This document shows, piece after piece, positions 23,602-53,160 of a DNA stretch of 64,000 nt. This stretch comes from a virus, in IMG/VR virus record IMGVR_UViG_3300025543_005580, positions 47,990 to 111,989 of that record. One strand, written 5' to 3'. A model generated the notes under the pieces. The model saw only the letters and a list, made by a program, of their open reading frames with translations, made no database searches and was not told where the DNA came from. The translations under genes were made by a program, and so were the position numbers. The stretch's first letter is position 1, and each line of letters starts with the position of its first letter.

Positions 23602-25260
23602 CTAGATAGTATCTAAACCAGCTACATAGATTTTACCATAGTACTCAGGACGTAACATCTTCTTAGCGTAACGAGTCATCAAACCTTTACGTGGAGTAAA
23701 CGTTTCTGGATCGTACACAAGAGGAGTCATGATTAATGGAATGTAAGGAGCAAATACAGCACCTGTTTCCAAGAATTGAGAACCTCTATATCCCATTAAC
23801 ATTAAGTTGTTAGTGAAATATGGATTTTTGTAAACTTTGTAACGGTTATTGATTGTACCAATTTTTTGTACACCAAATGCGTACTCACCTTGAGCAGCAT
23901 CACCGTTAGCGTTTGAAGCAAATCCTGGGATTGATTCCAAGATAGTAGCTACTGTTGGAGAAGTAACAATAAAGTTAGCACCACCTCTAAGAGTTAATTG
24001 GTGAATTTTATTGCTCAATTTCTGCATTTTAGTACCTAAAGTTTGGAACCACTCACCTTGAGAGTTGTAGAAACCAGTTTGTGCTACAGTTGTTGGGAAA
24101 TCGAAACTTGAACCATTCCAAACACCGTTGTTTTTAGCTGTCCAGTACTCAGTACCTGCAGCAGCATCAGCGATTAACATATCTAAGATTTCCAAATCAA
24201 TTTCCATTGAAATGTACTCACTCATGATATTTGTTAATTCAGCTTCAGCATCGATGTTTTGGTATGCAGCTAAATCTTGAGCGAACTCAGGAGTCCATAC
24301 TGCTTTCAATTTCTTGGTTTTAGCAGTAATAGCTTGTGATTGCATTTTAACGTTAATTTCTGGAATAACGATGTTAGTCGCAGATAAATCGTTAGGAGAT
24401 GCGTAACCTGGAAGTGCTTGGTCAGCTTCAAAATCACCACGGTTAATATCTGTAGTTAACTTGTTGAAGTATACAGAAGCGGGGTTAAACGTAGGCTGTA
24501 CAGATTGAGATACGAAGAACTCAAGATCAGTACCGTTAGTAGCAACTCTAGTTAAGTCTGAAAGGTTTTCAGCTAAAGTTACATCTGATGAAGAGATAAC
24601 AAATGCAGCAACACCATCTAAATCAGCATTAGCTGGGGCAGCAACAGTTACTTTCCAAATTTCACCTGCAACAAAAGAAGCAGAATATGCATCGTTTACA
24701 TCGATATCTTTGTAATCAGCAGAAACAGCAACAGTTACAGAACCTGTAAGGATAGAAGCTGTGAACTGGTTAGTTGAATAAGCAAAACGACCAGCACCGT
24801 ATAAACCACCTTCAGCTGCAGGAGTTGAGAATGGATAAGAACCAGCAGCGTTACGATCACCATAAAGTGACTCACCAACTGCGAAAGGAGTTTTAGCATT
24901 TCCGTATTGGAAATCTAAGAAGAACACTAGACCAGAAGGCATGTTCATAGGTTGAACAGAAACGAATTCTTTAGCTACGATAGTACCGAATACTTTTCTT
25001 ACTAAAGGTAAAGCAATACCAGCCCAGTTTTCACCTTCAGTACCTGAAGTGAAACCAGAGTTAGTAGAGATTACGTTAGTTTCTGTTACTAATTGTTTTG
25101 CTTGGTTTTCGAGCATCAAAGACATATTGTTCTTCTCAACTTCACCAAGACCTTCAAGTAGTCCTGTTTTAGACCACTTACCTGCTAATTTAGCAGCGTC
25201 AGACTGTAGGTTCTTCCATGAACCAGCAGCAGACTCGAGTAATGAATTTACTTGTGACAT
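23602..25260 (-). CDS. gp23: Major capsid protein, T4 gp23-like
   Basis: VSVQPMNMPSGLVF, AKTKKLKAVWTPEFAQDL, IDAEAELTNIMSEYISMEID, FAPYIPL, TPRKGLMTRY. Confidence 0.95.
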   Translation of the reverse strand: MSQVNSLLESAAGSWKNLQSDAAKLAGKWSKTGLLEGLGEVEKNNMSLMLENQAKQLVTETNVISTNSGFTSGTEGENWAGIALPLVRKVFGTIVAKEFVSVQPMNMPSGLVFFLDFQYGNAKTPFAVGESLYGDRNAAGSYPFSTPAAEGGLYGAGRFAYSTNQFTASILTGSVTVAVSADYKDIDVNDAYSASFVAGEIWKVTVAAPANADLDGVAAFVISSSDVTLAENLSDLTRVATNGTDLEFFVSQSVQPTFNPASVYFNKLTTDINRGDFEADQALPGYASPNDLSATNIVIPEINVKMQSQAITAKTKKLKAVWTPEFAQDLAAYQNIDAEAELTNIMSEYISMEIDLEILDMLIADAAAGTEYWTAKNNGVWNGSSFDFPTTVAQTGFYNSQGEWFQTLGTKMQKLSNKIHQLTLRGGANFIVTSPTVATILESIPGFASNANGDAAQGEYAFGVQKIGTINNRYKVYKNPYFTNNLMLMGYRGSQFLETGAVFAPYIPLIMTPLVYDPETFTPRKGLMTRYAKKMLRPEYYGKIYVAGLDTI

Positions 25261-26608: not shown

Positions 26609-27208
26609 TTAAATTACCGGACAAGTGCCATTAGCACACAGTATTTCCGATAATATTGTATTTACTTTTAAGTATTTATCTACTTGAACTTCTTGTCCTT
26701 CTTTAATCATATGCATGTATGATCCTGGGTTTGATGGGGTGGAAACAAAATCCCAACATAATAATTCGAAATCGTCTTGGACTTCTAATACACCATTTCT
26801 ATCCTCTAATGAACCCATACCTCGTGATGACACACCAACTTGTACGTTATTTTCAATTAATGCTTTAAGAATATTTCCTGATGTTGTAGGTAGTACTTCA
26901 ATTTTACCCATTACTTGATCTCCATCCCACCACATATCTCTAATAATATGGGATACATTTTTAAGATTGATGATAGAGGATTCTGGGTGGTCTAATTCAC
27001 CTGTTGCTCTATTTTCTTTTACAAGTACTCTGTATTTATCGATTTCACGTTCCCATAGATCTTTTGAATAATAACGACCATTGCCATTTTTTACTTCAGC
27101 AGTCGCTAAGATACCTTCAACTAATGGGTTACCTGATGGGGCTACCGATTCAGTTAAGCTAACTGGTTTAGCATTAAATGCTTGGGTTTCTATGAGGACC
27201 TGTTTCAT
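26609..27208 (-). CDS. gp21: Prohead protease, T4 gp21-like
   Basis: KNGNGRYY, GELDHP, VSHII, GVSSRGMGS, WDFVSTPS. Confidence 0.93.
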   Translation of the reverse strand: MKQVLIETQAFNAKPVSLTESVAPSGNPLVEGILATAEVKNGNGRYYSKDLWEREIDKYRVLVKENRATGELDHPESSIINLKNVSHIIRDMWWDGDQVMGKIEVLPTTSGNILKALIENNVQVGVSSRGMGSLEDRNGVLEVQDDFELLCWDFVSTPSNPGSYMHMIKEGQEVQVDKYLKVNTILSEILCANGTCPVI

Positions 27209-39830: not shown

Positions 39831-40124
39831 TTATTTTACTATTACTTTAAATAAACCTGGGTGTTCTTTTTCGAAATATTTAGCTTGATTATAGCTACGA
39901 CCAAAAACAAATTCATCTAATTCATCTGCATCAGTATATGTCGTAACATCTACTTCACCATCTTCTATTTCATCTTCAGTACCAAATTCATATGGAGAAT
40001 CTGCTAATTCACCTGACTCAACGTCAAAAGCTATTTCTGGGGTTAGAAGTTCAATGTGGTAATCCACTTCTTCTTCAAATAAGCGGCCTTCAGCTAAATA
40101 TTTTTTTAAATTGAAATTGTTCAT
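39831..40124 (-). CDS. Leader-bearing putative head cargo protein (97 aa, acidic)
   Basis: N-terminus MNNFNLKKYLAEGRLFEE. Confidence 0.7.
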   Translation of the reverse strand: MNNFNLKKYLAEGRLFEEEVDYHIELLTPEIAFDVESGELADSPYEFGTEDEIEDGEVDVTTYTDADELDEFVFGRSYNQAKYFEKEHPGLFKVIVK

Positions 40125-40152
40125 TGTTTTATTTTTTTATTTTAATTTTATT

Positions 40153-40683
40153 TTAGATGATATAATACAAATCGTCTTTTAACATTTTCCTCATTTCATC
40201 TTTACTGAATTGAGGGATTGGTTTTCCATTAGCATCCATTTTAAATGCAGGAAGGAATTCTCTTCCATCTTCATCAGATAATTGTGGTATAGCATAAATT
40301 TCAATATCACCATTACTATGGATTTCTACATACCCCTCATCTCCAACAGCATACATACCAGGTTTAACCATTTGAGCTACCATATCAAAATCGTAGGGAT
40401 AATCATTTTCTTCAGCAAATTCTTTTTCGTATACATTAGAATTAAAGCTAAAATTATTATAAAATTTATTAAATTCTTCTTCGTTCCAAGGGCCTGATTG
40501 GTTATAGCCATATATATCATCATTTACTCCATCATAATATCCTGCACCACCTGAACCTACTCCCCCTAAAAGACCATCATCAAATCTAAATCCTGCTTTT
40601 ACGAGTACATCTTCAATGTCTCTTAGTTCTTCTTTTAATAAGCGACCTTCGGCTAAATATTTTTTTAAATCAAAGTTATCCAT
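40153..40683 (-). CDS. Leader-bearing putative head cargo protein (176 aa)
   Basis: N-terminus MDNFDLKKYLAEGRLLKE. Confidence 0.7.
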   Translation of the reverse strand: MDNFDLKKYLAEGRLLKEELRDIEDVLVKAGFRFDDGLLGGVGSGGAGYYDGVNDDIYGYNQSGPWNEEEFNKFYNNFSFNSNVYEKEFAEENDYPYDFDMVAQMVKPGMYAVGDEGYVEIHSNGDIEIYAIPQLSDEDGREFLPAFKMDANGKPIPQFSKDEMRKMLKDDLYYII

Positions 40684-40715
40684 TTTATTTTTATTTTATT
40701 TCCTTTTATTTTATT

Positions 40716-41273
40716 TTATTCGCTTGCTAAATCCATAGCATATTGTTCAACTTCATCGGCATCATACCCAAAATCTTCAACATCTTCTATAAATTCTGCT
40801 TTACCATTAGTAAGTATATTAGCTAATACAGTACCTGCTTCTCCTAAAGCATACTCAAAATCTTCCATTTTACTAAGATCCATTATAGCAGATTTAAAAC
40901 TTTTTTTCTGTATGGGGGTAAGAAAAATTGGTTTTGATTCTTCTTTTTGTTTTTGAATTGGTTGAGATGGTTGAGATGGTGGAGTAAGTTTTTGTAAATT
41001 TAAATCGTTATCCCAAGTTAATTCATAATCCATTAATTTTCCTGTATTAGTTTCCGCTGTAACATTAGCCTGAATTGCTTTATGCTGTATCTTGTTGTTT
41101 TTGGAAGATGTAACCCTAATAGATTGTATAGGATCTAATCCGTTTTGTTCATTATATGTTGATATTATTGGGAATGCCATTTTTTCAATTTCCTCCATAC
41201 CAACATTCACAAAGTTTTCTTCTTCAAATAAGCGACCTTCAGCTAAATATTTTTTTAAATCAAAGTTGTTCAT
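40716..41273 (-). CDS. Leader-bearing putative head cargo protein (185 aa)
   Basis: N-terminus MNNFDLKKYLAEGRLFEE. Confidence 0.7.
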   Translation of the reverse strand: MNNFDLKKYLAEGRLFEEENFVNVGMEEIEKMAFPIISTYNEQNGLDPIQSIRVTSSKNNKIQHKAIQANVTAETNTGKLMDYELTWDNDLNLQKLTPPSQPSQPIQKQKEESKPIFLTPIQKKSFKSAIMDLSKMEDFEYALGEAGTVLANILTNGKAEFIEDVEDFGYDADEVEQYAMDLASE

Positions 41274-41292
41274 TTTATTTTATTATTTTATT

Positions 41293-41814
41293 TTATACTT
41301 CTATATCTGTTGTATCGTCAACTTCTACATCTATTTCTTCAGTATCACTACCTTCTCCTGGTGATGAGGTTGTTGATGCGGTATCTGATGCTTCTAAAGC
41401 TGCTTCATCTCCCATTTCAGCATCGCTGTTACCATAAGATAACATACGAGCTATAGCTTCAATAGCTCTTTCTTCCTCATTTAAATTAAGTAAATAATAT
41501 TTTTTACCTTCAATTTTAGCAATCCAACTACGAACTGCCCAAATTAAATAAAATACTTCATCATTTGCTAGTACAATTCTAAATGTAGTAGGTTTTGGAG
41601 CTACCCATTGGATATCTTTAACGAATGTTTCAAATTGATCCGTTAGCATATCAACTAATATTCTCTTTAGTTCTGGGAATTTTAAGAGCATTGGAAATTT
41701 TTCAATTTCTAAATCTATAGTGGAATTACCCCCATCCAAATCAACGAATGATCCTGGTTTGTATACTTGGCTTACAAGTCCTTTGATTTTATCTCTTAAT
41801 TCTGATTTAGTCAT
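41293..41814 (-). CDS. Hypothetical protein (MTKSELRDKIK leader, acidic tail)
   Basis: Clean ORF in the head-cargo block. Confidence 0.65.
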   Translation of the reverse strand: MTKSELRDKIKGLVSQVYKPGSFVDLDGGNSTIDLEIEKFPMLLKFPELKRILVDMLTDQFETFVKDIQWVAPKPTTFRIVLANDEVFYLIWAVRSWIAKIEGKKYYLLNLNEEERAIEAIARMLSYGNSDAEMGDEAALEASDTASTTSSPGEGSDTEEIDVEVDDTTDIEV

Positions 41815-43157
41815 TATTTAGACTTTAATTTTTCTGCTAATCTTTTAGCAATTTTTTCGGCTTTACTTAAATCGCCTTTATTCATTGCTTTTCTAGCTTG
41901 TTGGAGTTGATAAGTTTTAGATATATCTCCTTTATGTTTATTCAATGCCTTTTGAATAGCAGAAGCTAACATATCAGCTTTACCTGGGGTTTCTTCGTTT
42001 ATTTCAATATCATCAACAACATCAACTTCCATTTCAGGGGTGATATCATCCATTCTATCTACTACAGCATCAATTGCTGGTTCTTTTAGTTCAAAATCTA
42101 AGTAATGCTTAGCACCTACAATAGCTGATTTAGCATTTGAGATTTTTGATTGCCACCAATGTGGTAAATCAACTTCTCCTTTACCTTCAAAATCATCCAT
42201 CATTTGGTATAATTCCATAGCATATTTTCCAATACGATATAGATCACCTTTTAACATATGAGGTTCGTTATCTTGATGACCAAGATCCATATCTTCTTGC
42301 ATCATGTCCTCATCTTCATCTTCTTCCTCACCGTATTCTTCAATTTCGTCTACGATTGAAGCAATTGTAGTATCGTATCTGTTTGAGCTAGAACCTAAAT
42401 CGAAAGCACCATATGCGTCTCCTTTACTAAGGTAAGATGGGAAGTTTTGTGCGATAATATCTCTGGCTTGATCTCCTAATACTTGGAGTTCATCTAAGAT
42501 ATTTCTTAGCTCCATAAGAGCTTCTACTTTATCTTCATTTAATGCATTTTCACTTAAAAATTTAGCTTTTGCTGCTTTAAAATCACCTTTGTATAGTTGT
42601 TTAACTATTTTACGTCCTAAAGTTTCTAATTGATCTAAATCTAAAGAATGAGGTTTACCAAATCCTTTTAAATATGCCGCTCCAATGTCTCCATACTCTG
42701 CAGGATCAATTACATCTTCAACACCTTCTTTTAGATCACCTAATTCCTTAGCTGCTCTAACAAGATCATTTCTTGCTTCATCTTCACCAACACCTCTGTA
42801 TTTGGCTATCTTTTTAATAGCCATTTTAGCAATGCGTTTTTCTTCAGATGAAGAACTTTCATCTAGGTTTTTTTCAATTGCCGCGCCACGTTTTTCTTCG
42901 TAATCTGAAAGTTTACCATCTTTATTTAGATCGGCTGCTTTAGGATTTTTAAGAGAATCTTTAATCATCTCTCTAACTTTATCTTGATTCATATTTTCAG
43001 TTTTTTTCTTAGCCATATTAGTTGCGCGACCATACATTACTGCTTCCGCGTCCTTACCATAACGTTTAACGAAGGACCTCTTATTTGTTTTGAGGTCCAT
43101 TATCGCATCTTCTCGATTTTCGAGTTCTTGTTTAGTAAGTTCGCGTTCGTTAAGCAT
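41814..43157 (-). CDS. Modular putative internal head protein (likely start MLNERE at 43157)
   Basis: Modules bounded by LDE/LKE/LSE/LNE/INE. The ORF-track 5' extension overlaps the Hc1-like gene. Confidence 0.65.
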   Translation of the reverse strand: MLNERELTKQELENREDAIMDLKTNKRSFVKRYGKDAEAVMYGRATNMAKKKTENMNQDKVREMIKDSLKNPKAADLNKDGKLSDYEEKRGAAIEKNLDESSSSEEKRIAKMAIKKIAKYRGVGEDEARNDLVRAAKELGDLKEGVEDVIDPAEYGDIGAAYLKGFGKPHSLDLDQLETLGRKIVKQLYKGDFKAAKAKFLSENALNEDKVEALMELRNILDELQVLGDQARDIIAQNFPSYLSKGDAYGAFDLGSSSNRYDTTIASIVDEIEEYGEEEDEDEDMMQEDMDLGHQDNEPHMLKGDLYRIGKYAMELYQMMDDFEGKGEVDLPHWWQSKISNAKSAIVGAKHYLDFELKEPAIDAVVDRMDDITPEMEVDVVDDIEINEETPGKADMLASAIQKALNKHKGDISKTYQLQQARKAMNKGDLSKAEKIAKRLAEKLKSK

Positions 43158-43167
43158 GTGTTTTTTT

Positions 43168-43323
43168 TTACTTGTGTCCTCTTTTGAAGTCAGCGGATAA
43201 GTTTTTGATTTTGTTAGCGGCAGATCTACATCTTCCTTTAGCTGCAGCTGATGTTTTGTCAATTTCTGCTTCAATCAATAATACTTGTTCTTTGATTCCT
43301 TCTAATAATTCTTTAGTTTCCAT
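43168..43323 (-). CDS. Histone H1-like (Hc1-type) small basic protein, 51 aa; not in the ORF track
   Basis: METKELLEGIKEQVLLIEAEIDKTSAAAKGRCRSAANKIKNLSADFKRGHK with an A-rich start; resembles the KAAGTRARKAS pattern of Bacteroidota Hc1-like proteins. Confidence 0.6.
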   Translation of the reverse strand: METKELLEGIKEQVLLIEAEIDKTSAAAKGRCRSAANKIKNLSADFKRGHK

Positions 43324-43370
43324 AATTTTTATTGTTTTATAAATTTAATTGTTTGTTTATTTTTATTTTA

Positions 43371-44687
43371 TTATAATAATTTGTTTATCAAGCCATCGTT
43401 ACCTCTACGAACTGTAGATTCGTTAATTGACTCATTATTATCTACTTTAGAAACGTGTGCTCTAGTAAAGTAAGTAATTGTATTACCAATTTGATCAGTT
43501 AGTTTTTCATCTCCTAATTTTTCAGCTTCTTCTTGAGCTTTCATTAGTAAACTTTGAACTGCGATTTCATCTTCACCTTCACCTGGCATACTACCTTTTA
43601 CGTCAATATCGGTTTCAACTGATTCATCATCAACTTCAACATCTTTTTCAATGTCAACATCAACTTTTTCGTTGTCTTCAACATCTACTTCTTCTGCTTC
43701 ATACATATCATCTCCTTCATCCATATCTTCTATTTCGGCTACTGGGTCATATGCATCTGTAGTATCATTGATTGTGATTTCAGCTTCAGCCATCATAGCT
43801 GCTTTAATCATTTCTTTTAACTCTGATTTTTTCATTTTAGTTTTATTTTCGTTTAATTCAGTAGGCATTTCTTCATCTACTATTTCTTCTTTGGTATATG
43901 ATTTTCCACACATTTTTTCGTATAGTTTTTCCATCTTGGCTTTTCGTCTTTCAAGATCTTTAACTTCACGCTGCATTTCTTTCATTTTTTTCTTATCAAC
44001 TAATTGCGATAAGTTATCATCCTCAGTAACCATTGAAATTCTTTGGTTTTTAGATTCGATCATTTCATCAATAGCTGCAATTTTAGCTTCTAAAGCAACA
44101 ACTTGTGATTGTTTTTCGATTTCAGCTAATTTGCTGTCTACTGTTTCTTTTTTCATTTTATTTGATTTTGTTTTTTTAATTTCTTCTTCTTTAATTTCTT
44201 CCATGTAGTCGCTCATTTCTTTTCTGCGCTCCATATAATCGGTTTCTACATCATCAGTCATACCAAGATCCGCTTTGGAATCTTCGGCTGAAATGATTTC
44301 AATTTCGCCTTCAGGGGTAATATAAGCTACTTTAGCATTTCTTGAAGCAGCATTAGTAACTAAATAACCATCACCTTCAGGACGGATTACAAATGAACCA
44401 CCAGCATAATCACCTAAATAATTAGCAATACCGAATCCTCTACTGTCTTCCCAATCATCACCTGGTGTGTTAGGTCCTGCTTCTACATCTAAATCAAAAC
44501 CACCACCACGAGGATCAGCTTCAATTGAGTTAGGTGTAATTATATATTTAAGATCTAATTCATTATCTTCAGCTGTAAATTCATCAGCAACTGCTTGAGC
44601 TACTTTTTGAACTAAATCATCAGTAAGTTCTACTTCGTTTAGTAGCTTACCTTCAGCTAAATATTTTTTATAATTAAAATTATCCAT
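43371..44687 (-). CDS. Leader-bearing modular putative head protein (438 aa)
   Basis: MDNFNYKKYLAEGKLLNE leader and internal MKKSELKEMIK; late motif at 44704-44711. Confidence 0.7.
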   Translation of the reverse strand: MDNFNYKKYLAEGKLLNEVELTDDLVQKVAQAVADEFTAEDNELDLKYIITPNSIEADPRGGGFDLDVEAGPNTPGDDWEDSRGFGIANYLGDYAGGSFVIRPEGDGYLVTNAASRNAKVAYITPEGEIEIISAEDSKADLGMTDDVETDYMERRKEMSDYMEEIKEEEIKKTKSNKMKKETVDSKLAEIEKQSQVVALEAKIAAIDEMIESKNQRISMVTEDDNLSQLVDKKKMKEMQREVKDLERRKAKMEKLYEKMCGKSYTKEEIVDEEMPTELNENKTKMKKSELKEMIKAAMMAEAEITINDTTDAYDPVAEIEDMDEGDDMYEAEEVDVEDNEKVDVDIEKDVEVDDESVETDIDVKGSMPGEGEDEIAVQSLLMKAQEEAEKLGDEKLTDQIGNTITYFTRAHVSKVDNNESINESTVRRGNDGLINKLL

Positions 44688-44714
44688 TCCTAATATATTT
44701 ATGTATAAATATGG

Positions 44715-45008
44715 TTATTTTTTAGACTGATACGTCCCTTTCTTGTATTTTGCAGATTTTGTGTTTTTAACAAATTGTTTACCTTTTTTATCACCACGGA
44801 CTTTTTTAGCTACTGTAGCTTTTCTTTCTGCCTTTGTTAAGGATTGAGCTTTTTTTCTAGGCAAACATCTAGTAGTTGCTTTACCTTTTTTCATAGTACC
44901 ACAAGGGCCAGTAATGTTACCAGCCGTATCAATTCGAACCCAATCCTCTTTTTTAAACCAATCGCGAAGGGATTCTGAAATTATTTCTTGTAGTCTTTCG
45001 TTTGTCAT
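44715..45008 (-). CDS. Small basic putative head protein (97 aa)
   Basis: IISE followed by SLRDWFKKEDWV...PCG...CLP...ERK basic domain. Confidence 0.65.
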   Translation of the reverse strand: MTNERLQEIISESLRDWFKKEDWVRIDTAGNITGPCGTMKKGKATTRCLPRKKAQSLTKAERKATVAKKVRGDKKGKQFVKNTKSAKYKKGTYQSKK

Positions 45009-45589
45009 TATGAAACTGCGTCTTCAACAGCACCTTTTAAAATAGTATTTACTTCAATACCTTTAATTGCTGCTTTTAAACTATATATTCCACCTTTAAG
45101 ATAACTTGCTTTTTTAAGATAAGCAACAGCTTCACCTCCTGCTTGACCTGCCATTAAGAAGATTATAACAGCATATAATACATCGGATATCCATTTTTGT
45201 TTTTTGGTGTCTTTAGTAAAGATACTTACTATTCGTTTAATTGGAGCTTTAAATGCTTCTTCATTTTTATGAGTAAAATCATAAATTTTCTTGGCGGCCT
45301 CTTCACCTTTACCAAAATTATGTTTAGCAAATTGTTTTTTAGCAAATTTAGAAAGCATATTAGCTATTGTATTAGATAATAAAATATATCCTATAATACT
45401 AACAGTAATTGCTACCTCATTGATTTCTTTATCGGACTTTTGAATTTCTTCTTTATGGTCTTCTAATTCATCTTTAATTTCATCTGCTAGATCATCTGCA
45501 AATGCATCTAATTCAGCACCAAATTGATCTTCTTCACTTTCAAATAGCTTGCCTTCAGCTAAATATTTTCTTAAATCGAAATTATCCAT
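45008..45589 (-). CDS. Leader-bearing putative head cargo protein with hydrophobic helices (193 aa)
   Basis: MDNFDLRKYLAEGKLFE leader; INE followed by VAITVSIIGYILLS; VLYAVIIFLMAG. Confidence 0.7.
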   Translation of the reverse strand: MDNFDLRKYLAEGKLFESEEDQFGAELDAFADDLADEIKDELEDHKEEIQKSDKEINEVAITVSIIGYILLSNTIANMLSKFAKKQFAKHNFGKGEEAAKKIYDFTHKNEEAFKAPIKRIVSIFTKDTKKQKWISDVLYAVIIFLMAGQAGGEAVAYLKKASYLKGGIYSLKAAIKGIEVNTILKGAVEDAVS

Positions 45590-47801: not shown

Positions 47802-48238
47802 TATTTAAATGCGTTTATTGCTCTTTCGTCTTTAAAATGATCTTGGACTGCTTTTAATGCTACCTCTCTATCTTCAGGGGATAAAGCATTGAATCTAGCT
47901 AATATTCTATCGTTATTGTCTTTTGCTCTTCTATACTGACCACCATCATCTATGTACTCATAGTAAGCATCGTATGATTTAAAGTATTTTAAAAAATCAT
48001 CTAATGATGATAAATCTTCGTTTTCATTAATAGATTCATTCATGCCTAATTCAGCATGTAACACTTCCATAAAAGGACCAAAATTATGAGAGCCATACTC
48101 GTCTTTAAGAATAGCGGCTACACCAATTGCAAAATCTTTGTATGATAAATTTTCATCAACAGAAGCAATAGCATTATCTATCGCTTTTGCTACTTCATTT
48201 TCTACAAGATCAGAATAATATTCTTTAAGGTTTTTCAT
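47801..48238 (-). CDS. Putative internal head protein (145 aa)
   Basis: MKNLKEYYSDLVE start and internal MNESINE junction. Confidence 0.6.
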   Translation of the reverse strand: MKNLKEYYSDLVENEVAKAIDNAIASVDENLSYKDFAIGVAAILKDEYGSHNFGPFMEVLHAELGMNESINENEDLSSLDDFLKYFKSYDAYYEYIDDGGQYRRAKDNNDRILARFNALSPEDREVALKAVQDHFKDERAINAFK

Positions 48239-49067: not shown

Positions 49068-49640
49068 TTATTTTTTAAGTGATTGTAAAAATTTAATTGT
49101 TTCTTCTTTACTTTCTAGCATTTTTATTTTATTAGAACCAACCCAGCTTTCTATATCACCAGCTTCTGTTATAAAATCTTCGTTAGATTGATTTAGCATT
49201 TCGTCAAACCAAACCTCAAATTCTTTTGTTAAATTATCAACGTTATCGTTTATAAATACGTTATTATATTCTTCCCATAAACCCTTTAATTTTAAATCAG
49301 CTTCAAAGCTAACTTGACATGTTAAACATCTTTTAAATTGTAAATAAAAACGTTTATCTGCTTGCTTTTTCATTAAATTATTACATGAAGGACAAAATAA
49401 AGGCATATGTATTTCCTTTTTAGCATTATCCAGTTTAGTGATGTTTTGTTTAATACCGTTTTTAATAGTCCAAGTACGACCATCAGATTCCCAAACATCA
49501 CCTTCTTCATGAAATTCTTCTACTTTAGTATAACCAACACCTTGTACATTACGAGCCCCATGCTTGCCTGTCATTAGGTTACGAAGACGTTGTACGTCTT
49601 TTTCTTTAAATTCTTTCTTTAAAACTGATTCTTTACTCAT
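49068..49640 (-). CDS. Hypothetical zinc-finger protein (likely start MSKES at 49640)
   Basis: CPSC...CLTC; EGDVWE..GRTWTIKNG. Confidence 0.65.
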   Translation of the reverse strand: MSKESVLKKEFKEKDVQRLRNLMTGKHGARNVQGVGYTKVEEFHEEGDVWESDGRTWTIKNGIKQNITKLDNAKKEIHMPLFCPSCNNLMKKQADKRFYLQFKRCLTCQVSFEADLKLKGLWEEYNNVFINDNVDNLTKEFEVWFDEMLNQSNEDFITEAGDIESWVGSNKIKMLESKEETIKFLQSLKK

Positions 49641-51988
49641 AAACCTAATTTTTTTAATTCTTTTATTGTTTGTTCTGTAGATATAAATAATATACCTATT
49701 CCTCCTGCTGCCTTCCATTGGTCAATATTTGAAGGACGATCATCGATTAATATATTATTACCATCAGCATAGTTTTTCTTATTATAAGAATTAGCTAATA
49801 TTAATTTAGTTCCTGGGAGGTTATTTCTAACCCATAAACGTTTACCTAAACGAGAGGAATTTGAACGGGATGGTGAAGATAATAACATTGGGTTATTTGG
49901 TTTAATATACTCCCATAATTGTTTACCATTAGGCATCCAAGGCATACCAACCCAAAATCCAACACCATTTTCATTGTCAATTAAATTCCAAAATGCTTCT
50001 TTGCCATTTTTTTCTTCATATTCACGAGGAGAAATACCACCAGATGCTTTTTCAAATTGCTTATCAAAGTCAACTAATACACCATCCATATCACAATAGA
50101 TAGTATATTTTTGATCATTTACTTCATTCATAACTTTACTTTTATATTCGAATATGGGTAAAGATAATGCCTTAGCTCGGTTTCTCCAAATTTTTAATAT
50201 GTTTTCTCTTTCCTCAGCATTAATAGGTTGAGTATCAAGATAATCATTGATTACATCAATATATGGTTTTTTCGATTTTTTAGCTTTAAAGTATAAACCT
50301 TGAAGCATAGCATCTATTTCTTTGGGTAATCTAAAGTAATCTGCTTTAGGTAGTAAATCCAAATTAATTAAATCTCTAATTGTTTGATCATCATCCATTT
50401 GCTTACTAGGTCTTACTAGTTTTGGATCATCACTATCTACTCCACCTTTAACATTTTCTCCATCTTGAGTTAAATGCTCAAGCTCGTGTCTTACAACATC
50501 TTTAATATCAAATGATACTTTTTGCCAGTCTGGGTTTTTAGGTATTTTAAATTTAACTGATAGTAAGGGGGTTATTTCATTTCCTTTAGTATCAAATCCA
50601 GCATTTGCTCCTCCATCCACATTATACTCATCATCTGTAATTTCTACTACGCCTTCAAAATCAAAATAAAATTCTTCAGATGGAATATCATGTTCATCAT
50701 CTGGGTGGTCTACTCTAAATTCAAAGTCGCCTTTTTTATCTCCTCTATCGTGAATATCTTTAAATGCTTCAAATGCAATTTTAGATAATTGGTTAGTTAG
50801 TGTATCATAACGACCTTCGTTTAATGATTCTTCTAAACCTTGGGCTAATTCACGAGCGTATTGATTTAAACCAAATGGGTCTTTATTTTTTTTCTCTTCA
50901 AGTGGGGTATTATTATGCTCACATTTATGGCATGTAAATAAATCATCCCCACCATCTGCTATTTTCCAACTCCAGCCACAATTGTCACATTCGATTTTAT
51001 CGCCTATAATTGCTTCATTTAAGCTATCAGTCCAATTTCTAAATGTCATTGTACCTTTCAAATTAGCTTCAGCTTCAATATCATTTAAGTTATCGTCTTC
51101 CTGTGTATTAGTTGTAGTAATATCACTCAATCTACCCTCTAAATTTTGAATGTGATGTACCATTTCATGTGAGAATGAACGTACTATATCTTTAGGATGT
51201 CGTCCCTCAGTATATAGCACGATTGTACTTGTGTTTGGGTTATAATACGCTGTTTTACCGAAAAAATCACGTGCGTTTTCGCTATCACCGTTAATAAATT
51301 CAACTGTGGGTAAGGGATCAATATTATATCCCTTATCTCTCATATAATTAGTTAATTCGATTATTTTATTTTTATAATCTATATCTTTAGAATATGAAGC
51401 ATTTTCGTTTAATGACTCCTTAACTACATCTTGTATGTAACCAAATATTTCTAATTTTTCATCATCAGTTAAATTTGATGGTAAAAATTTGTAGAATGAT
51501 TCTGGGGATTGCTTTGCTGCTGATCTTGCTTTAGTACCACTAACATTGGCATCTGGAGTTTGGATTATTTTAACTTTAACATTTGGATATTTATCTTCTA
51601 CACCAGTTGTTCTTAAAGCAACATCTGTTAGATCATCTTCATTTCCTTGCCTAGCACCTATAATAAAGTAAACTACTTCTTCAGGATGGTTTTTTCCATA
51701 TCTTAAAATATCACCTATTGGTGCTTTTGATGGTTGTATTTCTACTTTTGATGGAAGATAATTTTTATATATATCCCATATCAACAAAGATTCTTCTTGA
51801 GTAATACCATTACGTTCTCCACTACCCACATAAATAATAAATTTATCTATTTCAGGGAAGTCAGATAGTGCTTTTTGTACTACTTCAAGATGTCCTTTTG
51901 TTGGTGGTTTGAAACCGCCACCATAAACAGCGGTTACCAAATTATCACCAACTAGTTCGGATATTAACGACTTAGTTAGTGAATTCAT
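49637..51988 (-). CDS. Multidomain protein: cytidylyltransferase-like NTase, HExxH domain, Zn ribbon, second HExxH domain, HAD 5'(3')-nucleotidase-like
   Basis: GGGFKPPTKGH...SGTKAR; SHEMVH; CDNC..CHKC; RHELEH..Q; IYCDMDGVLVDF...ILIDDR. Confidence 0.8.
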   Translation of the reverse strand: MNSLTKSLISELVGDNLVTAVYGGGFKPPTKGHLEVVQKALSDFPEIDKFIIYVGSGERNGITQEESLLIWDIYKNYLPSKVEIQPSKAPIGDILRYGKNHPEEVVYFIIGARQGNEDDLTDVALRTTGVEDKYPNVKVKIIQTPDANVSGTKARSAAKQSPESFYKFLPSNLTDDEKLEIFGYIQDVVKESLNENASYSKDIDYKNKIIELTNYMRDKGYNIDPLPTVEFINGDSENARDFFGKTAYYNPNTSTIVLYTEGRHPKDIVRSFSHEMVHHIQNLEGRLSDITTTNTQEDDNLNDIEAEANLKGTMTFRNWTDSLNEAIIGDKIECDNCGWSWKIADGGDDLFTCHKCEHNNTPLEEKKNKDPFGLNQYARELAQGLEESLNEGRYDTLTNQLSKIAFEAFKDIHDRGDKKGDFEFRVDHPDDEHDIPSEEFYFDFEGVVEITDDEYNVDGGANAGFDTKGNEITPLLSVKFKIPKNPDWQKVSFDIKDVVRHELEHLTQDGENVKGGVDSDDPKLVRPSKQMDDDQTIRDLINLDLLPKADYFRLPKEIDAMLQGLYFKAKKSKKPYIDVINDYLDTQPINAEERENILKIWRNRAKALSLPIFEYKSKVMNEVNDQKYTIYCDMDGVLVDFDKQFEKASGGISPREYEEKNGKEAFWNLIDNENGVGFWVGMPWMPNGKQLWEYIKPNNPMLLSSPSRSNSSRLGKRLWVRNNLPGTKLILANSYNKKNYADGNNILIDDRPSNIDQWKAAGGIGILFISTEQTIKELKKLGL

Positions 51989-52366
51989 TTATTGTTTTAG
52001 TTTTTGGATTTTTTCCTTAGCTATACGTTTCTTTTCTTCGATGTCCTTTTTAGCACCTCGAAAAGACTCCATAGCATCTTCCATTTCTTTGAGACTATCT
52101 TGATATGCATTTAGTGCTTCTGATCCTGCTCTCTTTGCATCTAATTTTTGTTTATAGATACCTAAAATATTTTTAACATCTAATCCACCTTTGATTTGAA
52201 GAGCGAATGAAGGAAGGTCTAATTCGTAAACCACATCTTCCATTTCGGAATCTTTGGTTGGTTTTTCTACGATAAAAAATTTGCCGATCTCATCTACCAT
52301 TGAAGTCGCTACTTCAGTAACTACTTCATTTGTTTCTATTTCGTTTAATATATCTACTAATTTCAT
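51989..52366 (-). CDS. Putative internal head protein (MKLVDILNE leader)
   Basis: N-terminus resembles a capsid-targeting sequence; coiled-coil tail. Confidence 0.6.
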   Translation of the reverse strand: MKLVDILNEIETNEVVTEVATSMVDEIGKFFIVEKPTKDSEMEDVVYELDLPSFALQIKGGLDVKNILGIYKQKLDAKRAGSEALNAYQDSLKEMEDAMESFRGAKKDIEEKKRIAKEKIQKLKQ

Positions 52367-53160
52367 TTTTTAAGGAATTGGTTTAATCTCATTTGTGCCT
52401 CTTCTTTAGACATAGTATATTCAATTACATCATATACAAAGTCATCACTTAACATAGATTGAATTTCTTCTTTATCTTGAGCATTTCGCTCATCTGATTT
52501 TTTCTGTTGAGCTGGAGTTTTTGGTTTAGTATCTGTAGGTGCGAATGGTTTAAGATATTTATCTATAATCTTATCTATATCTTGCATTCTATCATCTAAT
52601 GTATTAGCTACAGCAACAAAATTATTACCAAATAAATCAGCATATTTAGGTAGGTTTTCTGTTACACCTTTCCAAGTACGCATTACAATAGCAGGTGCTA
52701 AGCTTCTATCTTCACCACCTGATTTTTGGTATCTATCTTGATTTTGTCTTAACGAACGTTCTAGATCAGTATAAACGTAAAGCATAAATACATCGTATCC
52801 TGCTTCCTCCAATTGTTGTTTTAATTCAGCTGTTTTTTTAAATGAAGCGGCTGTACCATCTAAAACAAAGGATTGTTTACCATCTATTACACCTTGTAGC
52901 TCACCCTTAAATTCTTTGTTAGCTGCAGCCATTGCTTTAGCTTGCTCACTTCTTTCCTCAGGAGTAGCATTTTTTAAATCTAAAGATACATTGGCTTGTT
53001 TAAGTTTACTAATAAAGGTATTGTCTATATTAAGGATTTTTAAATCACCTATATCTAATTTTGATAAAATAGACCCTTTACCAGCACCCGGGGCACCAGC
53101 AAGAATTACTGCTTTAGGTTTAGATATAGCCTCCTTTAAAAGTTCTGTCAACAAAATCAT
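52363..53160 (-). CDS. P-loop kinase, zeta-toxin/AAA_33-like, with LLKE leader
   Basis: AVILAGAPGAGKG, LNIDN, FVLDGT, GYDVFMLYV..DLERSL..N..R. Confidence 0.75.
   Translation of the reverse strand: MILLTELLKEAISKPKAVILAGAPGAGKGSILSKLDIGDLKILNIDNTFISKLKQANVSLDLKNATPEERSEQAKAMAAANKEFKGELQGVIDGKQSFVLDGTAASFKKTAELKQQLEEAGYDVFMLYVYTDLERSLRQNQDRYQKSGGEDRSLAPAIVMRTWKGVTENLPKYADLFGNNFVAVANTLDDRMQDIDKIIDKYLKPFAPTDTKPKTPAQQKKSDERNAQDKEEIQSMLSDDFVYDVIEYTMSKEEAQMRLNQFLKK

Follow-up and report, generated by a model that had tools for sequence, protein, structure and literature searches.

A putative phage polyprotein with a conserved candidate head-protease site at the joints between its enzyme modules

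In the giant phages phiKZ, 201phi2-1 and SPN3US, a T4-like prohead protease reportedly cuts many head-internal proteins after Glu at (S/A/G)-x-E, with several of the fragments remaining in the head. In T4, the protease gp21 cleaves after Glu in I/LxE and can also cleave a cytoplasmic protein (PMC12991175), so that cleavage by such an enzyme would not prove packaging. T4 internal proteins with a capsid targeting sequence are a precedent for head cargo (PMC3012670). Another kind of system is formed by the polyvalent proteins (Iyer, Burroughs, Anand, de Souza, & Aravind, 2017; PMC5512222), which carry 2–15 unrelated domains per polypeptide; the commonest is a zincin-like module, which is often repeated within a protein. 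Their relatives show extreme domain mosaicism, and proteolytic release and delivery with the DNA are predicted for them (PMC5512222).

The window analyzed here is a stretch of 64,000 nucleotides (positions 47,990 to 111,989) of the IMG/VR virus record IMGVR_UViG_3300025543_005580, a contig of 112 kb with an estimated completeness of 69%. The contig encodes terminase, portal, MCP, and protease, as expected for a T4-like phage, and the lineage is one of 160-kb aquatic T4-like phages, whose hosts are probably Bacteroidota. The genome is tightly packed, with stop–start overlaps between genes. An open reading frame of 783 codons was confirmed at window positions 49637..51988 (-), within a primase/exonuclease/kinase operon and outside the head module. 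The first-pass annotation had described this frame as a chain of enzyme domains with an xNE motif at their junctions, and all the elements that it listed were found: LISE (residues 8–11), PPTKGH (28–33), HEMVH (274–278), CxxC...CxxC (334–356), PLEE (362–365), HELEH (501–505), and DMDGV (633–637). Its motif coordinates were exact, with the Glu codons of four motifs ending at 51404, 51014, 50816, and 50123. Pfam, PHROG, Foldseek, and AlphaFold models showed five separately recognizable modules (A to E), as had been proposed, with low-pLDDT linkers between them. We read the frame as a polyvalent polyprotein of independently folding enzyme modules on flexible linkers; taken as one claim with cleavage by the phage's S77 protease, prohead loading, and delivery, this has in our judgment about an even chance of being right.

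The merging of adjacent genes by an assembly or sequencing error would also yield a long frame, and it might be suspected because the nucleotidase that ends the chain is a separate gene in Flavobacterium phage immuto and because short split forms occur in metagenomes. Such an artefact is very improbable: the frame runs over 2,349 bases without a stop or frameshift, an identical 783-residue protein is encoded on an independent contig, and the frame is likewise uninterrupted in hundreds of homologues.

Module A (residues 12–195; 51404..51955, (-) strand) is a nucleotidyltransferase with the HIGH motif, PPAT/NMNAT-like, whose C-terminal end reads VKE-SLNE. It matched Pfam CTP_transf_like (PF01467) with 22.9 bits, over the cut-off of 21, and the family motifs TKGH (30–33) and SGTKAR (150–155) could be read in it. 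The AlphaFold model of this module (pLDDT 80–92) matched the PPAT structure 1gn8 in Foldseek with an E-value of 2.5e-7 and a TM-score of 0.80, against 0.6 for NadD structures, and sequence profiles run against the PDB gave weak PPAT matches. The search for an equivalog-level NCBIfam match was negative, the NMNAT, NadD, and CoaD models giving 14–23 bits against cut-offs of 103–181. A profile search did not find Nampt (PF04095) in the 69%-complete contig or in four complete relatives. The suggestion that the protein counters NAD-depleting defences is without support because no Nampt was found and module A lies below the NMNAT equivalog cut-offs; on the same grounds we rejected a role in NMNAT-dependent NAD rebuilding of the NARP2 type. 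A weak NAD_synthase match turned out to be a QueC-like PP-loop gene.

Modules B and D are zincin-like in motif and modelled topology and are putative peptidases. Module B (residues 196–325; 51014..51403, (-) strand) has the minimal form of such a metallopeptidase, with HEMVH, downstream Glu 305/307, and SLNE at its end. It was found in nearly all relatives, and His274, Glu275, His278, Glu305, and Glu307 were invariant in 40 sequences. Its modelled topology runs helix, three strands, HExxH helix, Glu helix, and its Pfam matches, Peptidase_M91 and DUF6782, were both under threshold. Module D (residues 392–614; 50147..50815, (-) strand) is a second HExxH module (HELEH) of zincin-like topology and ends at LSLPIFE. 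Modelled separately, it reached a pLDDT of 83 and a pTM of 0.74; the HExxH and a downstream Glu are invariant, and the order of secondary-structure elements is that of zincins. Its fold matches were weak: gluzincins recurred at Z 4–4.5, the highest Z in a wide structure search (VIA) was 5.0, without one match standing out, and Foldseek found no PDB match at E ≤ 0.001. Sequence profiles of B and D gave no PDB match either. In BFVD, module D matched uncharacterized phage proteins only, and the look-alikes in the ESM Atlas belonged to unnamed viral clusters, which pointed to stand-alone forms. Between the two modules lies module C (residues 326–391; 50816..51013, (-) strand), a CxxC-CxxC zinc ribbon that runs to PLEE and is followed by a conserved helical peptide of 26 residues to SLNE. 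Many homologues have PLNE at the position of PLEE, and the linker at the end of this module (362–396) was modelled with a pLDDT <50.

Module E (residues 623–783; 49640..50122, (-) strand) is a HAD-superfamily 5'(3')-deoxyribonucleotidase of the NT5C type, with DMDGV at 633–637. The identity proposed from this motif was borne out by PHROG 2643, which matched practically the whole module (625–783) with an E-value of 4e-27. The Pfam NT5C score of 15.9 bits is below the cut-off of 24.8, and that of a relative passes it with 30.7 bits; tblastn matched stand-alone phage 5' nucleotidases. A short, variable linker (residues 615–622; 50123..50146, (-) strand) joins D to E and contains VMNE with a conserved Met. 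This VMNE was rejected as a fourth conserved joint, since relatives have VMEN, VMRE, DMDY, and VMNY there. In an alignment of 57 distinct D–E junctions, conservation was limited to the Met and the upstream LSLPxFE. The conserved candidate site before the nucleotidase is LSLPxFE, which lies 6–8 residues upstream; VMNE is a lineage-specific accident around a vestigial Met that looks like the start codon of a former nucleotidase gene.

The claim that the domain junctions fall at the motif held, with one correction: each of the four [LIVM]NE sites is exposed in a linker of low AlphaFold confidence, and VMNE is not conserved among homologues. An exactly shared joint, SLNE, ends modules A, B, and C. 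Leader and linkers make up 17.6% of the residues and hold four of the four [LIVM]NE sites (binomial P 1e-3) and 7 of the 10 [LI]xE sites (P 4e-4). SLNE occurs three times in the 112-kb contig, always in the polyprotein, against 0.6 expected genome-wide, and the count for LNE is 28, compared with 10.1 ± 3.8 in shuffles. In 40 homologues, 124 motif sites stood in linker columns, compared with one per 25,315 residues of folded modules, where about 20–38 would be expected; the density is approximately 600 times higher in linkers than in folded parts. LNE sites in head-module proteins of the same phage speak for a site of the head protease; the propeptide region of the MCP, where the [LIVM]xE sites never read LNE, speaks against it. 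The codons of the motif vary synonymously (TTA/CTT/CTC, AAT/AAC, GAA/GAG), which argues for a peptide signal and not a DNA signal. LNE as a DNA signal (TTAAATGAA: a TAA-ATG stop–start remnant or a recombination signal) was rejected, because two of the three SLNE use AAC and codons vary synonymously across loci.

A homologue of gp21 had been named as the protease to use in cleavage assays, and one is indeed encoded in the window: a T4 gp21-type prohead protease (Peptidase_S77) at 26609..27208 (-), with a PF03420 match over the cut-off (E 4.2e-31) and a PHROG 207 match (E 1e-57). An S77 protease is also encoded in five of five large genomes from relatives with the polyprotein. At the joints, P3–P1 are conserved and P1' is variable, which fits a gp21-type protease, and the S77 protease is a candidate processing enzyme for the polyprotein. 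Zincins mostly read P1'. A different possibility is self-processing, in which the LNE linkers are cut in cis or trans by module B, module D, or both, either while still in the cytoplasm or once delivered, with the head protease uninvolved. Two HExxH modules with invariant catalytic residues, the presence of module B in nearly every relative, and the leaderless forms, which self-processing would account for, speak for it, as does the role of the metallopeptidase as hub of polyvalent proteins, predicted to free the other domains (PMC5512222). We nevertheless consider it unlikely: neighbouring proteins without HExxH have joints of the same kind, conservation of P3–P1 up to the Glu, but not of P1', is the signature of gp21, and B and D are putative peptidases, with weak fold matches for D.

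The search for relatives revealed homologues from aquatic viruses, numbering more than 4,600 (clusters at 90% identity from ocean and freshwater viral data) and 725–1780 residues long, which share a common core and differ by inserted, duplicated, and reordered modules. Domain shuffling among homologues, which had been named as a check, was strongly evident. Independent insertions of at least 40 residues (n = 25) ended in [LIVM]NE in 20 cases and in another [LIVM]xE in 4. Tandem copies of module D have LLNE between them, and stand-alone module D genes (210–213 residues) begin with the residue that follows the third SLNE and end at LSLPxF. The modules found in relatives include superoxide dismutase, a plastocyanin-like copper protein, ADP-ribosyltransferase, and a Pol-beta NTase. 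Since modules are swapped precisely at the joints among thousands of related phages, the chain is probably cut apart.

These data can also be read as those of an uncleaved multidomain enzyme, in which LNE is a favoured linker or helix cap carried along with recombining modules and fusion serves co-expression. The TDSLNE tails that recur on unrelated inserted modules suggest that the joint was copied with each insertion; the tight packing of the genome, with its stop–start overlaps, and the lack of LNE at some module borders in long relatives would agree with this. Against it, the motif is kept through synonymous and L/I/V changes at joints of unrelated sequence, is nearly absent from folded modules (the single site noted above), and fits the specificity of a protease that the phage encodes. 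We regard this alternative as improbable, if still worth weighing.

The leader (residues 1–11; 51956..51988, (-) strand) is an amphipathic helix that ends in I-S-E; in the AlphaFold model the helix spans 3–13. Among 45 distinct N-termini of homologues, about 20 had it, and the others begin at the first Rossmann strand. In one class of homologues the leader ends in ILNE followed by Gly, and stand-alone module D genes have no leader. Identity with the tag shared by window genes 39831–45589 was not borne out, as the likeness of the ILNE class was by eye only and the profile gave no match: a five-tag profile scored 4.8–6.1 bits against the leaders, the same as against random 22-mers.

Our main model, which we put at even probability, is that the modules are joined by [LIV]NE sites, cut by the S77 protease, loaded into the prohead, and delivered with the DNA. 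The Leu/Ile/Val-Asn-Glu sites of the linkers would be targets of the phage's own protease, cut after Glu as in I/L-x-E. The precursor would enter the prohead, with the short N-terminal helix as a possible loading signal, about five pieces would be cut inside it and exit with the DNA, and the infecting phage would bring ready-made enzymes. Relatives would swap modules through the gain or loss of entire units at the joints. That the chain is cut at its joints is probable; we infer the cutting itself, the choice of protease, capsid loading, injection, and the substrates of the enzymes. The placement in a primase/exonuclease/kinase operon, the lack of a leader in roughly half of the homologues, its ending here in ISE and not LNE, and the borders without LNE in long relatives count against the model, as do the superoxide dismutase and plastocyanin-like modules, which look like ordinary cytoplasmic helpers. 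No virion proteome was found in the literature searched for the clade or for phage immuto, the only cultured relative of this phage. A wider version, somewhat short of even, is that such a cargo train is general to aquatic T4-like phages: a chain of swap-in enzymes would be loaded into the prohead, cut by the head protease at LNE, and injected as a metabolic and counter-defence set, with the joints as insertion points for new modules.

If the joints are truly cut, large DNA phages would rely on polyproteins with a defined, transferable cut site for the production or delivery of accessory enzyme sets. A sequence rule would then allow mature phage proteins, and the cargo of virions, to be predicted from metagenomes, and the exchange of accessory modules would be accounted for. 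Two abundant uncharacterized zincin families and a divergent nucleotidyltransferase would be flagged as early-acting phage enzymes, and the polyprotein could be a natural scaffold to load foreign proteins into the capsids of non-model phages.

The closest cultured homologue is encoded by genes 183 and 184 of Flavobacterium phage vB_FspM_immuto (MW353175); it aligns with 90% of the query at 41% identity, and its annotation says no more than NMN adenylyltransferase. It shares the order A, B, D and the primase–exonuclease neighbourhood. It differs in an extra N-terminal Pol-beta-like module, the lack of the zinc ribbon, a nucleotidase in its own gene with an L-L-E-E leader, and other joints, for example M-A-E before GRYD.

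As in phiKZ, 201phi2-1, and SPN3US, a short motif ending in Glu is combined here with a gp21-like protease in the phage, with cutting predicted from sequence. Unlike in those phages, the motif is Leu-Asn-Glu and the lineage another one, and their substrates are not modular multi-enzyme fusions. The likeness to IPI, IPII, IPIII, and Alt of T4 lies in a protease of the gp21 family, a short N-terminal helix leading to I-x-E, Leu/Ile at P3, and Glu at P1, and Alt is a precedent for a large enzyme as head cargo. T4 cargo, however, loses only its leader, with one additional cut in IPIII, and does not consist of enzyme chains with sites in between; in the polyprotein, for which packaging is predicted, the leader is optional in the family and is not linked by the profile to the tag of the neighbouring cargo candidates.

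With polyvalent proteins the locus shares unrelated domains in one phage polypeptide and mosaicism among relatives, and its two HExxH modules may correspond to their zincin-like ones. In the passages of their description that were consulted (PMC5512222), we found no mention of a junction motif of the LNE kind. The joints described here are instead an explicit, conserved three-residue site that fits a head protease and not a zincin, and in place of the DNA/RNA-directed effectors, ArdC-N, and MuF of the described classes, there are small-molecule enzymes, with superoxide dismutase and a copper protein in relatives. The polyprotein may thus be seen as a processing variant of polyvalent proteins and T4 internal proteins, in which the new element would be a conserved site of the head-protease type at the enzyme joints.

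The window covers the last 64 kb (3' end) of an IMG/VR viral contig of 111,989 bp (completeness estimate 69%) from a T4-like phage with a G+C content of ~31%, whose minus strand carries the terminase, portal, prohead protease and major capsid protein genes. The polyprotein ORF (49637-51988, minus strand) is stop-free and codes for 783 residues. An assembly artefact is excluded in practice, as an independent 5.7-kb contig encodes the identical polyprotein. The operon is tightly packed: the TAA of the upstream gene abuts the polyprotein ATG, and the polyprotein TGA shares bases with the start codon (ATG) of the gene that follows. A DnaG-type primase, a PD-(D/E)XK nuclease, a Zeta-toxin-family kinase, and a 125-aa protein are encoded upstream, and a zinc-ribbon protein downstream. 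The listed start of this downstream ORF (49068-49718, minus strand) is probably an error; the polyprotein TGA is overlapped (ATGA) by an ATG at 49640, from which translation, coupled to that of the polyprotein, would yield 190 aa with an RPB9-like zinc ribbon.

Every element that the first-pass annotation had listed was found in the ORF, and its four motif coordinates were correct to the base (Glu codons ending at 51404, 51014, 50816, and 50123). Module A (residues 12-195) is a HIGH-motif nucleotidyltransferase that scored over the cut-off of Pfam CTP_transf_like and was modelled with a pLDDT of 80-92. In Foldseek, it matched phosphopantetheine adenylyltransferase (PPAT) 1gn8 with an E of 2.5e-7 and a TM of 0.80, and NadD structures with a TM of only about 0.6; the predicted fold is thus nearest to PPAT. 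The proposal that NAD is rebuilt was unsupported, because module A reached only 14-23 bits against the NMNAT, NadD, and CoaD equivalog models (cut-offs above 100) and Nampt was not found in the 69% complete contig or in four complete relatives. Module B (residues 196-325) carries HEMVH, with the His, Glu, His, and a downstream Glu invariant, and weakly matched Peptidase_M91 and DUF6782. In module C (residues 326-391), a CxxC-CxxC ribbon is followed by a helical peptide of 26 residues that is conserved. Module D (residues 392-614) contains HELEH; modelled alone with a 54-sequence alignment (pLDDT 83, pTM 0.74), it was predicted to run from a helix through a four-stranded sheet and the HExxH helix to helices bearing a nearly invariant Glu, and searches with Foldseek against the PDB, VIA wide search, and BFVD returned no confident structural relative. 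Module E (residues 623-783) is an NT5C-like HAD nucleotidase (PHROG 2643, E 4e-27).

The tetrapeptide SLNE occurs three times in the entire contig, always inside the polyprotein, and LNE occurs 28 times versus 10.1 ± 3.8 in within-protein shuffles. The full-length AlphaFold model has inter-domain segments with pLDDT <50 at residues 188-202, 288-329, 362-396, and 596-625. These linkers and the leader make up 17.6% of the residues and hold all four sites of the joint motif [LIVM]NE (binomial P 1e-3) and seven of the ten looser [LI]xE sites (binomial P 4e-4), in agreement with the earlier claim that domain junctions fall at the motif. Among 40 aligned sequences, [LIVM]NE was found 124 times in linker columns and once in 25,315 folded-module residues, where 20-38 were expected from the genome's own rates; the rows are related, and this comparison is not a P value. 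Codons for the motif vary: TTA, CTT, or CTC for Leu, which Ile or Val sometimes replaces, AAT or AAC for Asn, and GAA or GAG for Glu; the motif is kept at the protein level. Positions P3-P1 of the joints are conserved, and P1' is variable (Asn, Gly, Ala, and others).

The fourth proposed joint, VMNE, did not hold up across 57 distinct D-E junctions, in which conservation was confined to a Met just ahead of the HAD core and an LSLP[VLI]FE upstream. This Met looks like a relic start codon from a time when the nucleotidase had its own gene. In the closest cultured relative, Flavobacterium phage immuto (MW353175), the nucleotidase is a separate gene directly after the A-B-D gene. Gene 183 of this phage, annotated as a NadR-type NMN adenylyltransferase, really encodes four modules in a chain: a Pol-beta-like NTase, a HIGH NTase, and a pair of HExxH modules. 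Gene 184, for the nucleotidase, has a separate leader of 15 residues that ends in L-L-E-E.

The comparative evidence is the strongest part of the case. A search of 5.8 billion proteins (E <= 0.001) revealed, among the candidates scored, 4,623 polyprotein relatives of 725 to 1,323 aa with query coverage of 50-100%, besides 58 of 1,372-1,780 aa and 957 shorter forms. When the five modules were mapped on 120 relatives, the core was constant, extra modules entered at the A/B, B/C, and C/D borders, and module D was tandemly duplicated in some. The shuffling of domains among homologues bore out the proposed junctions, with inserted modules ending at the joint motif in most cases: when 40 members were aligned with MAFFT and all inserts of at least 40 residues relative to the polyprotein were chosen blind to the motif, 20 of 25 distinct insertions ended in [LIVM]NE, four in another [LIVM]xE, and one was ambiguous. 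Insertions after module A come behind Val-x-Glu, so VKE-SLNE in the polyprotein is a pair of joints that meet directly because no insert lies between them. Module D also exists in other phages as a free gene without any leader (metagenome proteins P0209, P0220, P0222, and P0238; 210-213 aa, contigs up to 182 kb), starting with Met plus the exact residue that follows the third SLNE and ending in LSLPxF, so its function is independent of chain membership.

Long relatives of 1,428-1,617 aa (P0249, P0272, P0265, P0276, and P0298) carry Fe/Mn superoxide dismutase (SOD), plastocyanin/azurin-like copper, and Tox-ART-HYD1 ADP-ribosyltransferase domains, together with Pol-beta palm, HD, and DUF6934 modules. 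With this variety, the chain carries accessory enzymes in general and is not a pathway dedicated to nucleotides. In P0249, the 880 inserted residues that include the SOD and copper domains are free of [LIVM]NE. Repeated TDSLNE tails in the long relatives hint that the joint sequence was merely copied along with each inserted module in a fusion that stays uncleaved, an explanation we consider unlikely.

A leader was present in about 20 of 45 distinct homologue N-termini, the others beginning at the first Rossmann strand; the leader is thus optional. In one class of leaders, ILNE comes last and Gly follows, as at an internal joint; the polyprotein reads differently at the equivalent place, and only an I-S-E four residues earlier remains. 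By eye, this class resembles a tag common to five genes at 39831-45589. A five-tag profile did not bear out this likeness: it gave the leaders 4.8-6.1 bits, a score that random 22-mers also reached. A further copy of the tag (MxNFDLKKYLAEG) lies outside the window at genome 9044-9676 (window -38945 to -38313, minus strand) and begins at a Met within the called ORF. The two genes immediately 5' of the polyprotein (52363-53160 and 51989-52366, both minus strand) have short N-terminal extensions ending in L-K-E and L-N-E and may be members of the same processed set. The former encodes the Zeta-toxin-family P-loop kinase (PF06414, E 1.3e-17), with its extension placed just ahead of the Walker A strand.

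T4 gp21 cleaves after Glu in I/L-x-E (PMC12991175). The same protease family is encoded in this phage (Peptidase_S77, 26609-27208, minus strand) and in five of five large related genomes. LNE is present, along with many further [LIVM]xE sites, in head-module proteins and a scaffold-like acidic protein of the phage, and VNE sites were observed in neighbouring proteins. The first ~70 residues of the major capsid protein (23602-25260, minus strand) contain five [LIVM]xE (LLE, LLE, LGE, MLE, and VTE) and no LNE; if this protein is trimmed as in T4, the protease is not restricted to LNE. In the simplest model, the polyprotein would be a substrate of the S77 protease and be cut at its joints. Since gp21-type proteases act mainly inside proheads, it would also be loaded into the head and delivered with the DNA. 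We give this model an even chance. Doubt arises from the optional leader, the position of the gene within a replication neighbourhood, and the demonstration that T4 gp21 also cleaves a host protein in the cytoplasm (PMC12991175). Cutting of the joints by the polyprotein's own predicted zincin modules, as proposed for polyvalent proteins (PMC5512222), seems improbable to us, given that the joints show a Glu-at-P1 signature and the same joints are used in neighbouring proteins without HExxH.

The internal proteins of T4 are loaded by way of a short targeting sequence at the N-terminus, which the protease then cuts off (PMC3012670). The polyprotein, a candidate member of this class, would resemble them in its proposed loading and trimming. 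It fits the published polyvalent-protein class (PMC5512222) in its many domains, its predicted metallopeptidase modules, and its mosaicism. Relative to the class as described in the available part of PMC5512222, it differs in two features: an explicit site, conserved at the junctions and compatible with the head protease, and partner modules that are small-molecule enzymes.
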